The notes under the pieces: generated by a model
The model's input: the letters and a program-made list of their open reading frames with translations, nothing else
What the model was told of the DNA's origin: nothing
The model's database searches: none
NCBI RefSeq assembly: GCF_003463065.1
Contig: NZ_QSCM01000012.1
Location: 3,954 to 67,953 of the forward strand
DNA: 64,000 bases
Direction of reading: 5' to 3'
Source of the DNA: Blautia sp. OF03-15BH
Lineage (GTDB): Bacteria > Bacillota > Clostridia > Lachnospirales > Lachnospiraceae
Program-made: the position numbers and the translations under genes
Shown: positions 45,344 through 50,463 of the stretch, piece after piece
Position numbering within the stretch: the first letter of the stretch is position 1
How the letters are laid out: each line of letters starts with the position of its first letter

Positions 45344-46450
45344 TCAGCGGTATTTATTTACGATCTCTTTCATCTTCGGAAGCTTCTCTTCCATATCTTT
45401 TACCAGTTTGAACTGTGTGTGGGCACGGTCCAGATTCTGGTTGTCCCGTGTGGTCTTGAAATAATGGTCACCTTCCAGATAATCGGTGAGGAAACGCATA
45501 CCGCACTCAAAGGTCATCATCATGGCTCCGGTGGGCAGATTGTCCAGTTCGATATCGGTCAGTGCTCCGCCGCAGCCTTCAATAAAGCCTTTGACATAGA
45601 GCTCATAGAGGTCCAGATCGCACCAGATTTTGGAAAGATCCGGCTCGTCCTCGGCTCCTGTGCTGGCACCGAAACGGATGGAATCACCAAAATCATTCAC
45701 TGCCAGTCCCGGCATGACTGTGTCCAGGTCAATGACACAGATGCCTTTTCCGGTGGCATTGTCAATGAGGATGTTGTTGAGTTTGGTATCATTGTGGGTA
45801 ACACGGGTCGGGATCTTCCCGGCTGCCTCCAGGTCACAGAGGGTGTGAGCGAAAGCCTCATGATCCAGAACAAACTGGATCTCCTCTTTTACAGAAGCAG
45901 CTCTTCCGCAAGTATCGGCTGCCACAGCCTTCTGAAAGGTTTCAAAACGCTTTGCCGTGTTATGAAAATCCGGAATGGTCTCATGAAGGGATTTTGCCGG
46001 AAAATCTGCCAGCATACGCTGGAAATGACCGAAGGAAACAGCACTCTCGTAAAAGTCAGAAGGCTTCTCCACCTGATCGTAGCTGGTGGTTCCCTCTACG
46101 AAAAGATAGATCCTCCAATACTGTCCTTCGCTGTCCAGATAATAAGGCTTTCCATCTCTGGAACACACGACTGTCAGAGTCTCCCTTTCCGGATCACCGC
46201 CGTTTTCTTCGCTTTTCTTTTTGATCCACTCCGTTACATGAACAATGTTTTCCATCAGTTCCACGGGTTTTTCAAAAATATTCTTATTCATTCTCTGAAG
46301 GATATAACGACGCTGTCTTTTTTCTGTCTCATAAGTCACGCGGAAGGTATCATTGATATGACCGCTTCCATAGGGCGCCAGTTCCTTCAGCTGTCCTTCC
46401 GGCAACGCAAAAGCTGCCAGAACTTCTGCTGTGATCTGCTCCTTATTCAC
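45344..46450 (-). CDS. nahK: N-acetylhexosamine 1-kinase (NahK/LnpB-like anomeric kinase, APH fold)
   Basis: YILQRMN..IF, RVTHNDTKLNNIL, DFGDSIRFGAST, ECGMRFLTDYLEGD motifs closely parallel recalled B. longum NahK; GTG start at 46450 directly after the upstream stop (TAAGGTG) with GGGAGGAAG RBS. Confidence 0.75.
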   Translation of the reverse strand: MNKEQITAEVLAAFALPEGQLKELAPYGSGHINDTFRVTYETEKRQRRYILQRMNKNIFEKPVELMENIVHVTEWIKKKSEENGGDPERETLTVVCSRDGKPYYLDSEGQYWRIYLFVEGTTSYDQVEKPSDFYESAVSFGHFQRMLADFPAKSLHETIPDFHNTAKRFETFQKAVAADTCGRAASVKEEIQFVLDHEAFAHTLCDLEAAGKIPTRVTHNDTKLNNILIDNATGKGICVIDLDTVMPGLAVNDFGDSIRFGASTGAEDEPDLSKIWCDLDLYELYVKGFIEGCGGALTDIELDNLPTGAMMMTFECGMRFLTDYLEGDHYFKTTRDNQNLDRAHTQFKLVKDMEEKLPKMKEIVNKYR

Positions 46451-46451
46451 C

Positions 46452-47381
46452 TTATGCTTCCTCCCAAAGTTTCTGAGGATATCTTCCCTCATCCTTTAAT
46501 TTCTGAATCGCTGCCACAACCACCGGCTTGTCTTCCTTATAAGTAACGCCGTACCATTTATCTTCGGATTTCAGTACCTCTACCGTAGCTTTCTCCTCTG
46601 CCAGAAGCTCTCCTACCACACTGGGAAGGAAAAATTCACATTTCAAAGGATTCTTCGGAAGGTTTTCCTCCAGGAATTTCGGGAAACGGCTGCCGATCTC
46701 TTTCATGATGCTGTTGGTAAAGCCCCACATATTCATAGACACAATGCTGCCTTCCGGAATGGTGGTCCAGGTAGCTCCGTCATCCTCGGTATAAGCAGTC
46801 ACATCGCCTCTTTTTTCGATATGGGTACGCTCGCAGATGCCTACCAGCTGATGGTTCTCATCGGTGGTGCAGACACCTCTTGCCACATGACCGTTCTCTG
46901 TCAGGGTATTCTCCAGAATATAGCCTACCATGGTGTAACGGTATTTGTCGTCATCCTCATGGGTGGAAAGATAGTCGTAGATTTCCTGGAATGCATGAGG
47001 TCCGTAATAGTCATCTGCATTGATCACGGCAAAGGGACCATCGATCTTATCCCGGCAGCTTAAAATCGCATGCGCGGTTCCAAATGGTTTTACACGACCT
47101 TCTGGAACGGTAAAGCCTTCCGGCAGATCCTCCAGCTCCTGGAACGCATATTCCACGTTCATGATCTTTGCCATACGCTCGCCAATGGACTCTTTGAAAT
47201 CCTTCTCATTTGCTTTCTTGATGATAAAGATTACTTTCTCAAAGCCGGCTCTTTTCGCATCATAAATGGAAAAATCCATAATGATATGACCCTCTTTATC
47301 CACCGGATCGATCTGTTTGAGACCGCCGTAACGGCTTCCCATTCCAGCTGCCATGATTACCAGTACAGGTTTCTTACTCAT
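46452..47381 (-). CDS. Sugar-1-phosphate nucleotidyltransferase (putative UDP-N-acetylhexosamine pyrophosphorylase; GlmU-N/MurU-like)
   Basis: 309 aa; MAAGMGSRYG, FGTAHAI and VINADDYYG motifs resembling GlmU NTase-domain motifs. Confidence 0.65.
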   Translation of the reverse strand: MSKKPVLVIMAAGMGSRYGGLKQIDPVDKEGHIIMDFSIYDAKRAGFEKVIFIIKKANEKDFKESIGERMAKIMNVEYAFQELEDLPEGFTVPEGRVKPFGTAHAILSCRDKIDGPFAVINADDYYGPHAFQEIYDYLSTHEDDDKYRYTMVGYILENTLTENGHVARGVCTTDENHQLVGICERTHIEKRGDVTAYTEDDGATWTTIPEGSIVSMNMWGFTNSIMKEIGSRFPKFLEENLPKNPLKCEFFLPSVVGELLAEEKATVEVLKSEDKWYGVTYKEDKPVVVAAIQKLKDEGRYPQKLWEEA

Positions 47382-48438: not shown

Positions 48439-48564
48439 ATCTTCATGCCTGCCTTTACTTTCTTAGAACGGTATTCTTCGTCTTCTCCACTTATCATACC
48501 TGTTTTTTTTTCGGTCTGTCAAGTGGGGATTCCTTTCCGCCGTCCGGTCAGACAAAAGAAAGCA

Positions 48565-50463
48565 TCAGATGGTTCCCGTACCCATATTTCCGGCAGTTAC
48601 GATGTTGCACCAGTTGTTCATATTGAAAGGCTTCTGCAGTCCTTCCGGAGCACTGGGCTTGTAGGGAAGACGTTCTTCCAGAAGCTCCGGGATCTCTGTG
48701 ATCTCACCGTCAAGGTATGCCAGGATACGCTTCTGTGCGCTTACCAGTCTTGCATGAAGACCGCCCTGACGGATATCAATCGTCTCATAACCATTGGGCT
48801 TGCACTCATGGAACCAGATCTTCTCACGGAAATCGTGATACTGCTCCAGTTCTTCCAGGCAGACGGGGATCTGCTCTTCGGCAATGCTGGTCAGCCAGTC
48901 TCTGTCGTCCTCCAGATAAGCTCTGCGGATATCCATACCGATGCCGCCCTTCACTGCAAGGAATTCTGCCAGGGAACGGTAGCAGGCAAAGAGCGCTTTG
49001 GAAACGGTCACACGCTCCTCCACTGCCCGGAGTTCTTTTGCCAGCTTGCCGTAATGGCCGTAGAGATCATACCCCTCGTACTGACGGTCGAAAAGTCCCA
49101 GCAGCGGATCCTGATAAAACAGATGCTTGGATGGAGTAACTGCAGCAATATTCAGCGGGTCACAACCCGGCAGGCAGTCCATTTTGGTGAGAAGCATCCA
49201 CTCTTCCAGGGAAGCTTCCTGGAAAAGATGAAGCTTCTCATCAATGGCAGCATCTTCCGGCTCCTCCGCAAAGCCTTCCTCTGCAAAAAGGATCAGTGGA
49301 AGCAGACCTGCTGCAAAGGGAGTCTCGGTGCCGTCATCCATCCAGAAAGTCATAAACGCATTGCGGACTTTCTGCTGTTTCATAACGCGCATGGCGATCC
49401 TTGTGCTGTCAAAGGCTTTTCCATAGTTGGGGATCAGACCGTTCCAGGTCCAGCCGCCGCCTGCGAAATAAACTTTATTGGAAAGTTTTTTGTGAAGGCT
49501 CAGCATTCTCTCATAGGTCTTCGGATCGTGGTTGTAATAATCCCAGTAAACCATCGTCAGGTTATCACCCGGTTTTTCTTCCTCCGGCCACTCATACTCT
49601 TCCGGAACGCCGTAATAAGAACCGTCCTCTGAAGCCAGGTTGAAGAACATATCACTCCACATCATGGGCTCCAGACCGTATTTCGCACAGAGTTCCTCGA
49701 CCTTTGCCAGATGACGCTTCATAATGGAAAGGCGGTTTGTGAAGCCATGCTTTCTCAGATATTCACCAAGACCCAGACCGTGTGCTTCATCCATACCCAG
49801 ATGTACTTTCTTTGTGCGGACGCACTCAGAGAAGTTTTTCAGCATAGCTTCGATGAGTTCATAGGTCTTTTCCTCCTCCGGAAGAAGGTTGTCCCGGTTG
49901 TCCTGCAGGCCATTGCTTTCCGGCCAGCGCAGGAAAGTGCTCAAATGTGCCAGTGTCTGGATACAGGGAACCAGATAAATACCGAAAATTTCGCCGTAAG
50001 CATCGCACTCTTTCAGCTCCTCTTTTGTAAATCTGCCGCGGAAAGCGCCGAAGTAGGGATACTCCGGAAGCTCATAGGTATCTTCTGTATAAAGGAAGAG
50101 CTCGTTCATGCCCAGAAGAGCCATGGTACGGATCATCCGTTTCAGCATATCCGGTGTGGGAACACCGTTTCTGGAACAGTCCGGCATAGCGCCCAGGCAG
50201 TCTGTATAAACCGTCTCCTCTTTCACAAAATCCGCATCCTCCAGATGCTGGAAGAGATAGCCGAGACCGCGGAAAAAATGAGCCTTCTCTTTGCAGGAGA
50301 TGGTCACATCCAGACCCTTTTTCTCAATTTTTAATTTATTTTCTTCTGTAAATACCGGTGTGATGGAAATTCCGCCCTCGCCATATACATGTCCACGTTC
50401 TTCCAGCAGGATCTCGAGACCTTTTTTCAGTGTTTCCTGCTCTTTTGTCAATACAAAATTCAT
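48565..50463 (-). CDS. Glycoside hydrolase family 20 (beta-N-acetylhexosaminidase / lacto-N-biosidase-like), intracellular
   Basis: 632 aa; H-x-G-x-D-E catalytic motif (HLGMDEA) and GH20 barrel pattern; no signal peptide; AAGGAGG RBS. Confidence 0.7.
   Translation of the reverse strand: MNFVLTKEQETLKKGLEILLEERGHVYGEGGISITPVFTEENKLKIEKKGLDVTISCKEKAHFFRGLGYLFQHLEDADFVKEETVYTDCLGAMPDCSRNGVPTPDMLKRMIRTMALLGMNELFLYTEDTYELPEYPYFGAFRGRFTKEELKECDAYGEIFGIYLVPCIQTLAHLSTFLRWPESNGLQDNRDNLLPEEEKTYELIEAMLKNFSECVRTKKVHLGMDEAHGLGLGEYLRKHGFTNRLSIMKRHLAKVEELCAKYGLEPMMWSDMFFNLASEDGSYYGVPEEYEWPEEEKPGDNLTMVYWDYYNHDPKTYERMLSLHKKLSNKVYFAGGGWTWNGLIPNYGKAFDSTRIAMRVMKQQKVRNAFMTFWMDDGTETPFAAGLLPLILFAEEGFAEEPEDAAIDEKLHLFQEASLEEWMLLTKMDCLPGCDPLNIAAVTPSKHLFYQDPLLGLFDRQYEGYDLYGHYGKLAKELRAVEERVTVSKALFACYRSLAEFLAVKGGIGMDIRRAYLEDDRDWLTSIAEEQIPVCLEELEQYHDFREKIWFHECKPNGYETIDIRQGGLHARLVSAQKRILAYLDGEITEIPELLEERLPYKPSAPEGLQKPFNMNNWCNIVTAGNMGTGTI

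Follow-up and report, generated by a model that had tools for sequence, protein, structure and literature searches.

A Blautia locus pairing a predicted N-acetylhexosamine 1-kinase with a 3PNN-family nucleotidyltransferase: a probable route from N-acetylhexosamine to UDP-N-acetylhexosamine

Introduction

What becomes of an N-acetylhexosamine (HexNAc) in a clostridial cell that encodes, beside a NahK-like kinase, a nucleotidyltransferase in place of a GalT-type enzyme? The question is raised by a locus in a 64,000-nucleotide stretch of Blautia sp. OF03-15BH (contig NZ_QSCM01000012.1, positions 3,954 to 67,953; the whole stretch is called the window below). Four intact open reading frames (ORFs) on the minus strand fill positions 45344-50463: a GH20C-type hexosaminidase, an AraC regulator, a sugar-1-phosphate nucleotidyltransferase (NTase) and a kinase. 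An initial annotation made from the sequence alone had described these four same-strand genes in a Clostridial background. We found all four at the coordinates given, and the closest homologues come from Blautia, Candidatus Limivivens and other Lachnospiraceae.

We consider it fairly probable that the locus is a cytoplasmic module for harvesting and activating HexNAc, in which HexNAc would be converted to HexNAc-1-phosphate (HexNAc-1-P) and then to uridine diphosphate (UDP)-HexNAc. The argument is carried by the kinase, by the pairing of NTase and kinase genes across many genera and in fusions, and by the epimerases encoded beside them.

Results

The kinase resembles NahK over its full length

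The kinase gene (45344-46450, minus strand) starts with GTG and encodes a NahK-type protein of 368 amino acids (aa). A domain scan returned APH at 2e-19, and NCBIfam gave no family match for this protein or for the GH20C hexosaminidase. Aligned with Bifidobacterium longum NahK (PDB 4WH1/4OCJ), the kinase gave an E value of 5.1e-93 and 315 bits, with residues 10-364 lying on NahK residues 11-351 at about 55% identity. The sequence blocks by which it had been likened to NahK/LnpB are all present and align to the B. longum enzyme (RYILQRMN, RVTHNDTKLNNIL, DFGDSIRFGAST and ECGMRFLTDYLEGD). The catalytic motifs HNDTKLNN and IDLDT are identical to those of NahK, and RVTHNDTKLNNIL and VIDLDT are unchanged in the alignment. 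In NahK, we take Asp208 to be catalytic and Asn213 and Asp228 to bind Mg (HNDxKxNN ... IDLD motifs). Their equivalents in the kinase are D221, N226 and D241, which do not vary among 13 clostridial orthologues.

In a PDB search with the kinase at E <= 0.01, NahK was the sole family matched. Choline and aminoglycoside kinases, the competing kinship that the initial annotation had raised, were not among the matches. Full-length homology marks the kinase as a clear predicted orthologue of NahK (N-acetylhexosamine 1-kinase, EC 2.7.1.162), and with 55% identity to NahK, orthology with AmgK appears very unlikely.

The junction with the NTase gene reads ...GCA TAA G GTG..., with a single base separating the NTase stop from the kinase GTG, much as the initial annotation had described it; GGGAGGAAG just 5' of the GTG forms a ribosome-binding site. 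An alternative in-frame ATG at 46492 (42 nt upstream, overlapping the NTase gene) would yield 382 aa. We prefer the GTG because homologues are 364-368 aa long, because the NahK alignment begins at residue 10 and because gene callers chose it. On four public contigs from this species, gene callers gave the same two products, of 309 aa and 368 aa and one base apart.

The nucleotidyltransferase belongs to the 3PNN family

The NTase gene (46452-47381, minus strand) encodes 309 aa with a single domain, which Pfam matched weakly as NTP_transferase (1.7e-08). Its sole close PDB relative is 3PNN of Porphyromonas gingivalis W83 (E 1.5e-85 over residues 3-306, 48% identity). No other member of the family has a solved structure; 3PNN itself is a structural-genomics 'conserved domain protein' without assigned function, and a literature search on it found no relevant paper. 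An exhaustive search at E < 1e-30 placed 2057 clusters (50% identity) in the family. Among 27 diverse members (alignment A1), from which we built a family profile, 39 columns are invariant. The motifs of the 3PNN family, AAGxGSRYGGLKQ, Q81, RxKPWGTxHA and INADDYYG, are present in the NTase.

Which characterised enzymes lie nearest? Searched against the PDB, the family profile matched after 3PNN only UTP:glucose-1-phosphate uridylyltransferases of the GalU/YngB type (1e-9 to 1e-4; UTP, uridine triphosphate), and the matches to GalU structures span only the N-terminal ~120-185 residues. At E <= 1, nothing named MurU, GlmU, RmlA or LicC was matched, and the remainder were a few weak chance matches; MurU is presumably represented in the PDB by 4Y7T-V. 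An AlphaFold model of the NTase (predicted local distance difference test score, 92.5) is a single alpha/beta domain. Foldseek with this model returned 3PNN at a template-modelling (TM) score of 0.90, followed by RmlA and GalU at TM ~0.6 with 13-19% identity. NCBIfam matches were sub-threshold only (Arch_glmU, 33 bits against a cut-off of 292; AglF, 22 bits against 400), and a Pfam scan of the 309 aa found no hexapeptide-repeat domain of the GlmU C-terminal type. The earlier description of a GlmU/MurU-like enzyme hence stands for its NTP_transferase domain and falls for the kinship with GlmU and MurU: the NTase sits in the 3PNN family, nearest to GalU/YngB and RmlA. The resemblance to GalU is one of related fold, and as judged by these comparisons the NTase would lie outside the GalU family itself.

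In an hhalign alignment, the invariant Q81 of the NTase pairs with RffH Q80, which equals RmlA Q83, the base-selecting Gln; PDB titles state that RmlA Q83 variants alter base preference. The profile matches to GalU/YngB, the fold matches to RmlA and GalU and this pairing of Q81 together place the 3PNN family in a branch of its own among the pyrimidine-nucleotide sugar-1-phosphate NTases. With GalU/YngB and RmlA as its closest characterised relatives, the family would prefer a pyrimidine nucleotide.

NTase and NahK recur as neighbours and as fusions

We surveyed the pair from both sides. The genome survey started from the NTase, with one genome per species; its 80 loci have identities of 53-77% and come almost entirely from Clostridia. 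For neighbour counts by ORF clustering with Pfam, 81 loci were read. The metagenome survey started from NahK and gave 80 loci, 68 of them informative, with room upstream. NahK directly adjoins the NTase in 21 of the 80 genome loci, in many Clostridia genera and usually downstream. Seen from NahK, 45 of the 68 informative loci have the NTase immediately upstream in the same orientation.

The two proteins also occur as single polypeptides. An NTase::NahK fusion of 657-675 aa in Lachnospiraceae (L171:7001-8974; also L172) is indexed in 52 blocks and found on dozens of contigs, in the order solute-binding protein (SBP)-permease-permease-[NTase::NahK]-AraC. Another, of 671 aa, is present in two Bacteroidota metagenome-assembled genomes (L173:7001-9016). 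Their kinase halves are 49% (Lachnospiraceae) and 40% (Bacteroidota) identical to the window kinase, and the two fusions are independent. NTase and NahK thus come together, in various genera and in fusions, much more often than chance would allow.

A further ORF of 742 aa joins the NTase to a four-domain mutase of the phosphoglucomutase/phosphomannomutase type (P0294, L174:825-3053). It may be real, leading from sugar-6-phosphate through sugar-1-phosphate to a nucleotide sugar, or an artefact of frameshift or assembly; we did not use it, as it stands on a single metagenome contig.

Around the pair, the commonest neighbour family of the NTase is a GalE-like epimerase, found in 24 of the 81 genome loci and near NahK in 26 of the 80 metagenome loci. 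GH112 lacto-N-biose phosphorylase occurs near the NTase in 6 genome loci and near NahK in 10 metagenome loci, in some of them beside the pair, a NagA-like amidohydrolase occurs in 4 genome loci, and sugar ATP-binding cassette (ABC) permeases are also encoded near the NTase. Where NahK is present in the genome loci, AraC is the commonest neighbour family (12 of 98 neighbour proteins, 20 loci). GalT Pfam families were absent from the families common to at least 2 of these 98 neighbours, which leaves room for a GalT elsewhere in the genome. NahK loci that lack the NTase are arranged as GH112-AraC-NahK or SBP-permease-permease-GH112-NahK.

One Blautia arrangement (L085:1-10155; also L086 and L087) reads AraC, anSME, sulfatase, SBP-permease-permease, DUF6903, NTase-NahK-GalE, in which anSME is the radical-SAM maturase of the sulfatase and DUF6903 a mini-protein. 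Such an order suggests that a sulfated host glycan containing HexNAc is taken up. The SBP of this locus matches PDB 9H0N (E 1e-90), an entry that names no ligand. Among SBPs encoded beside the pair in relatives, none matched B. longum GL-BP, and the best matches were a chitin-oligosaccharide binder (E 2e-14) and an unnamed family-1 SBP.

Could the pair serve cell-wall recycling, taking N-acetylmuramic acid (MurNAc) from peptidoglycan through MurNAc-1-phosphate to UDP-MurNAc as AmgK and MurU do, with the GH20C acting as a NagZ-like muropeptide hexosaminidase? The logic would match, in that an APH-fold anomeric kinase is joined by an NTP-transferase (PMC10941766, PMC7670621), and the substrate is unreadable from sequence alone. 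However, this is very improbable given what surrounds the genes: over 160 loci the neighbours are GalE, GH112, sulfatase and sugar ABC importers, the recurrent Pfam families of the scanned neighbours include no peptidoglycan-recycling family, and MurNAc recycling has no use for a UDP-hexose 4-epimerase. The proteins point the same way, with a kinase ~55% identical to NahK and matching no other PDB family at E <= 0.01, and with no PDB chain named MurU among the matches of the NTase family profile at E <= 1.

Neighbouring epimerases point to UDP-HexNAc

The neighbouring epimerases bear on which sugar the NTase uses. The gatekeeper residue of the 24 NTase-adjacent GalE proteins is Cys (19), Val (4) or Leu (1), and Tyr in none of the 24. 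We take E. coli GalE, with Tyr299 at the gatekeeper, to be limited to UDP-glucose and UDP-galactose, and human GALE, with Cys, to accept UDP-HexNAc as well. The GalE of one such locus (L007) is by score slightly closer to human GALE and to B. longum bGalE than to the E. coli enzyme, and a role for the gatekeeper Cys299 in the acceptance of UDP-HexNAc by bGalE has been reported (PMC8106489). These residues suggest that NTase-adjacent GalE proteins accept UDP-HexNAc. Hence, the linkage to GalE points to UDP-sugars, and the gatekeeper residue to the acceptance of N-acetylated ones.

According to Table S7 of PMC5583593, among the parts of that study used here, Blautia and Dorea carry adjacent GalK-GalT. 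Since these Lachnospiraceae already have GalK-GalT, the NTase would not be needed there for galactose 1-phosphate (Gal-1-P), which favours HexNAc-1-P as its substrate, or a broad specificity that includes HexNAc-1-P. From the gene linkage, the fusions, the linkage to GalE and the GalU/RmlA-like fold, we infer that the NTase acts on HexNAc-1-P and UTP. The two-step conversion of HexNAc to UDP-HexNAc that the initial annotation had put in place of a GalT-type enzyme thus gains support from homology, from conservation of the pair, from the fusions and from the GalE gatekeeper.

The hexosaminidase is of the GH20C type

The first gene in the direction of transcription (48565-50463, minus strand) encodes 632 aa with Pfam matches to Glyco_H_20C_C (PF18088, 6.7e-57) and Glyco_hydro_20 (PF00728, 9.6e-10). 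Near-full-length PDB matches are Streptococcus gordonii GcnA (2EPK, 5.8e-108) and Streptococcus pneumoniae GH20C (5A69, 7.7e-108). The H-x-G-x-D-E motif noticed at the outset is H221-L-G-M-D225-E226. Ten active-site residues of GH20C, taken from PMC11308363 and mapped on the 5A69 alignment with a chain numbering offset of 23, are all kept (R94, D222, E223, W266, W306, Y308, Y309, W339, W373 and D375). Read directly, with no predictor run, the N-terminus (MNFVLTKEQETLKKGLEILLEERGH...) is charged and lacks any hydrophobic signal segment, in line with the lack of a signal peptide claimed earlier. GH20C exo-beta-hexosaminidase has been co-crystallised with both N-acetylgalactosamine (GalNAc) and N-acetylglucosamine (GlcNAc) (PMC11308363, PMC5215778). 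Strong homology argues for an intracellular exo-beta-N-acetylhexosaminidase of the GH20C/GcnA subgroup. The predicted activities of hexosaminidase and kinase alike rest on strong homology, and the GH20C would be functionally linked to the pair.

A proposed pathway

The pathway would run as follows. The GH20C would trim imported oligosaccharides ending in beta-linked GlcNAc or GalNAc, with a transporter encoded outside the locus. The NahK orthologue would phosphorylate the free HexNAc at C1 with adenosine triphosphate, giving HexNAc-alpha-1-phosphate. The NTase, translationally coupled to it, would then convert HexNAc-1-P and UTP to UDP-GlcNAc or UDP-GalNAc and pyrophosphate. A GalE encoded elsewhere in the genome, whose gene is immediately downstream in many relatives, would interconvert UDP-GalNAc and UDP-GlcNAc, and the AraC-family protein would control expression. 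The product could enter cell-wall and glycan synthesis, or epimerisation and catabolism; the evidence is compatible with either.

A wider proposal, which we offer tentatively and which may well prove too broad, is that 3PNN/GalY-like NTases stand in for GalT/LnpC in Clostridia and Bacteroidota as UDP-sugar pyrophosphorylases of promiscuous specificity. With NahK, to which some are fused, they would form a portable cassette for HexNAc activation behind interchangeable front ends (GH20C in this locus; GH112 or a sulfatase plus ABC importer in others).

Several observations weigh against the pathway. No member of the 3PNN family has a demonstrated activity or a ligand-bound structure, and the base-selecting residue is placed ambiguously: an alignment with E. 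coli GalU instead pairs RxKPWGTxHA with RQGLAKGLGHA, in disagreement with the RffH alignment. Family NTases stand without an adjacent NahK in 59 of the 80 genome loci, and in a neighbour-joining tree the NahK-linked, GalE-only and unlinked NTases interleave. Queries for GH112, GalE and NagA-like proteins (tblastn) found no match in the 64-kb window, and the nearest sugar ABC transporter in the window is ~25 kb from the locus. The GH20C is beside the pair in this species only; in the 160 related loci surveyed, 80 from genomes and 80 from metagenomes, it was never found.

What do the NahK-free loci and the tree imply? We had considered a separate clade of NahK-linked NTases and rejected it, as linked and unlinked members interleave; the NTases look like one family with shuffled operon context and not a NahK-specific subfamily. 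Hence, the enzyme may be a general or promiscuous UDP-sugar pyrophosphorylase, using Gal-1-P as in the predicted GalY. Taken further, the NTase would be a general UTP:hexose-1-phosphate uridylyltransferase acting mainly on Gal-1-P, its adjacency to NahK would come from shared UDP-sugar and GalE chemistry, and HexNAc-1-P would be used by another enzyme such as GlmU. In keeping with this, the passages of PMC5583593 on GalY (Amuc_0031) describe a 291-aa PF00483 protein beside galE that is predicted to replace GalT. The NTase family adjoins GalE without NahK in many loci, GH112, which releases Gal-1-P, is beside the NTase in some, and the nearest characterised relatives use glucose 1-phosphate. 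We nevertheless regard Gal-1-P as an unlikely main substrate: in both independent fusions the partner of the NTase is a NahK-like kinase and not a galactokinase, the NTase is directly upstream in 45 of the 68 NahK loci, the adjacent GalE proteins carry a HexNAc-permissive gatekeeper, and the Lachnospiraceae in the 2017 survey, in its parts used here, already have GalK-GalT. The Gal-1-P and HexNAc-1-P readings are also compatible, as a promiscuous enzyme would fit both.

Other family members are found in a different setting. In one cluster with PelG and four GT2 genes, a 291-aa member directly follows a GalE-like epimerase (L170:4945-6876), and some family members appear to supply UDP-sugars for exopolysaccharide synthesis. 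The epimerase neighbour again ties the family to UDP-sugar supply.

Is the GH20C part of the module? The NTase and NahK might form the functional unit, with the GH20C a chance neighbour in this species and HexNAc coming from other sources. Its absence from all 80 genome and all 80 metagenome loci with relatives of the pair favours this, and the AraC gene, a promoter-like site and a repeat element stand between the GH20C gene and the pair. A 15-nt match upstream of the GH20C and NTase genes also turned out to be the end of a dispersed repeat and not a locus-specific operator. Still, a chance placement seems to us rather doubtful. The genes lie on one strand with gaps of 126 and 130 bp between GH20C, AraC and NTase and no unrelated gene inserted, and the four-gene arrangement is identical on the four public same-species contigs read. 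Cytoplasmic GlcNAc and GalNAc from a GH20C are exactly the substrates of NahK, the GH20C of S. pneumoniae also adjoins a sugar kinase, and elsewhere the pair is joined to GH112 or to a sulfatase with an ABC importer, suggesting a modular design. The earlier statement that the pathway is fed by a GH20 accordingly holds for adjacency in this species and fails for recurrence. We retain the GH20C as the predicted front end of the HexNAc module.

Regulator, transcription signals and repeats

The AraC-family regulator (47512-48438, minus strand; 308 aa) carries HTH_18 (6.9e-16) and HTH_AraC (2.9e-15). Orthologues at ~40-60% identity are encoded near the pair in about 10 genome and 13 metagenome loci, and an AraC gene also follows the fused NTase::NahK gene.

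A promoter-like site, TTGACA-18-TATGAT, lies in the gap between the GH20C and AraC genes (48493-48522, minus strand), placed for the AraC gene; it scored 11/12 in a consensus scan, and the region holds no more of these sites than expected from shuffling. A likely bidirectional terminator hairpin (45294-45326) with a GC-rich 13-bp stem and T-runs on both strands lies 18 nt past the kinase stop and is followed on the minus strand by TCTTTTT. Together, these transcription signals are weak evidence. The same 33-nt GC-rich hairpin, GCCGCAGAATGGATCTGATCTCCGTTCTGCGGC, occurs at 44635-44667 and 45294-45326 and brackets an ORF at 44813-45190, which encodes 125 aa with a PBECR3/PBECR2 nuclease domain. 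In three of the four public same-species contigs (L001, L003 and L004), the gap between the kinase gene and coaX is ~65 nt. This is too short for the PBECR ORF, and therefore the ORF looks like a ~660-bp insertion that duplicated the terminator hairpin.

The gap between the AraC and NTase genes is filled by a palindromic repeat of ~145 bp (47410-47553) that runs into the 3' end of the AraC gene, with terminal inverted repeats GTAACTGTTCAGAAC ... GCTCTGAACAGTTAC. The termini follow the consensus GTAACTGTTCAGA(A/G)C ... G(C/T)TCTGAACAGTTAC, and an internal palindrome reads AAAAGTGT..CATGCAAGCATG..ACACTTTT. The element is present in full once more at 53963-54106, with more copies or ends near 37334 (~37260-37350) and a solo end at 50629-50643, which makes six ends in the window. 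The element looks like a miniature inverted-repeat transposable element or a repetitive extragenic palindrome. A candidate shared operator, GTTCTGAAC[A/T]GTTAC, with a 15/16-nt match upstream of the GH20C and NTase genes, was rejected as a terminus of the dispersed repeat. Because the 15-nt match is the terminal inverted repeat of the ~145-bp element, it is no evidence of locus-specific co-regulation.

Genomic setting

One flank of the cluster encodes an ABC-F ATPase and trpS, and the other the small PBECR3 nuclease ORF, coaX, an energy-coupling factor S-component and coaBC. These genes are unrelated to the four, so that the cluster stands as a self-contained unit. A public assembly collection lists the exact NTase protein in 316 blocks, and the contigs read from it are metagenome assemblies.

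Two other sugar-related regions lie in the window. At 15316-21592 (minus strand), two SBPs and two permeases make up a CUT1-type sugar ABC system, which is followed by a 541-aa DUF5597-domain protein; this system is a possible importer of the GH20C substrate. At 54103-59593 (minus strand), two sugar-binding proteins of the Peripla_BP_4 family are encoded along with a dCache/HAMP/His_kinase sensor and a response regulator whose output domain is of the AraC type. The latter is a sugar-sensing two-component system a few kb away, with no demonstrated link to the locus.

Discussion

The locus is of interest mainly for the function, open to test, that it proposes for a very large family of orphan enzymes. 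If the HexNAc assignment is right, a function would be given to the 2057 clusters that include the solved structure 3PNN, and a non-orthologous replacement of LnpC/GalT would be recognised. It would also fill the undescribed downstream half of HexNAc, galacto-N-biose (GNB) and lacto-N-biose (LNB) metabolism in abundant gut Lachnospiraceae. For Roseburia, Pichler et al. 2020 (PMC7335108) give these downstream steps generically, the sugars there 'are converted', and our literature searches (NahK plus nucleotidyltransferase in Clostridia; lnpB/lnpC replacement) found no paper describing the pairing. Metabolic models of cross-feeding on mucin and human milk oligosaccharides could then be refined. 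There is also a possible practical use: NahK is now paired with GlmU or human AGX1 in engineered cascades, as the parts of PMC10462111 and PMC12710852 used here describe, and its natural pyrophosphorylase partner could catalyse the making of UDP-GalNAc and UDP-GlcNAc analogues. The portable cassette, if it exists, would be the natural counterpart of these NahK plus GlmU/AGX1 systems, salvaging host GalNAc and GlcNAc directly to UDP-sugars.

Which known system does the module resemble most? The best reading is a clostridial variant of the downstream part of the bifidobacterial GNB/LNB pathway, with a pyrophosphorylase replacing LnpC. In B. longum this pathway comprises LnpA (GH112), LnpB (NahK), LnpC (a class II GalT) and LnpD (GalE), and the kinase described here is predicted to be orthologous to its NahK. 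Relatives of the locus come closer still, with the pair clustered with GH112, an ABC importer and a GalE that is probably of broad specificity by its gatekeeper. The chemistry is alike, from HexNAc through HexNAc-1-P to UDP-HexNAc and on to C4 epimerisation (PMC8106489; bioRxiv 10.64898/2026.09.13.751320). The systems differ in the middle step: the Clostridia would use a UTP pyrophosphorylase of the NTP_transferase fold, unrelated to LnpC, a HIT-family UDP-glucose:hexose-1-phosphate exchanger. With the NTase in the place of LnpC, UDP-HexNAc would be made with UTP and not by exchange of uridine monophosphate. The window also differs in having no GH112, GalE or transporter at the locus, where the GH20C is the apparent front end. 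The contrast that the initial annotation drew with bifidobacteria consequently survives as to the replaced uridylyltransferase; a wholly separate alternative it is not, as relatives with GH112 and GalE make it a variant of the GNB/LNB route.

AmgK/MurU of Pseudomonas putida and Tannerella forsythia shares the two-step logic, the protein superfamilies and the bypass of de novo UDP-sugar synthesis. As far as tested, neither window protein is an orthologue, the kinase being a predicted NahK and not a distant APH protein, and the gene context here is host-glycan use in contrast to cell-wall recycling.

GalY (Amuc_0031; Ravcheev and Thiele 2017, PMC5583593) is, in the passages used, a PF00483 protein of ~291-305 aa that is clustered with galE and for which the conversion of a sugar-1-phosphate to a UDP-sugar has been proposed. 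It differs in its assignment, which in those passages is confined to GalT-less Bacteroidetes and Akkermansia and to Gal-1-P, with Firmicutes homologues unassigned; the same passages hold no link to NahK or HexNAc. GalY, a computational prediction for which a literature search found no follow-up paper, probably belongs to the same family as the window NTase and 3PNN, likened here by description and not by sequence. 3PNN itself shares length and fold with the NTase (48% identity, TM 0.90). P. gingivalis is reported to lack AmgK-type kinases (PMC7670621).

The hexosaminidase has its counterparts in S. pneumoniae GH20C (SP_2141) and S. gordonii GcnA, which have the same two-domain architecture and active-site residues, are intracellular and act on GlcNAc and GalNAc. 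SP_2141 adjoins a putative ROK-family sugar kinase in an N-glycan-processing locus, whereas here the neighbours are a predicted anomeric 1-kinase and a nucleotidyltransferase.

The same reaction sequence, a 1-kinase followed by a pyrophosphorylase, is used in eukaryotic salvage of GalNAc and GlcNAc by GALK2 and UAP1/AGX1, in Bacteroides Fkp and in the engineered NahK plus GlmU/AGX1 cascades. The protein families differ: eukaryotes use a GHMP kinase and a UDPGP-type pyrophosphorylase, and the kinase of Fkp is also of the GHMP type. The NTase::NahK fusions parallel Fkp in being predicted bifunctional kinase/pyrophosphorylases.

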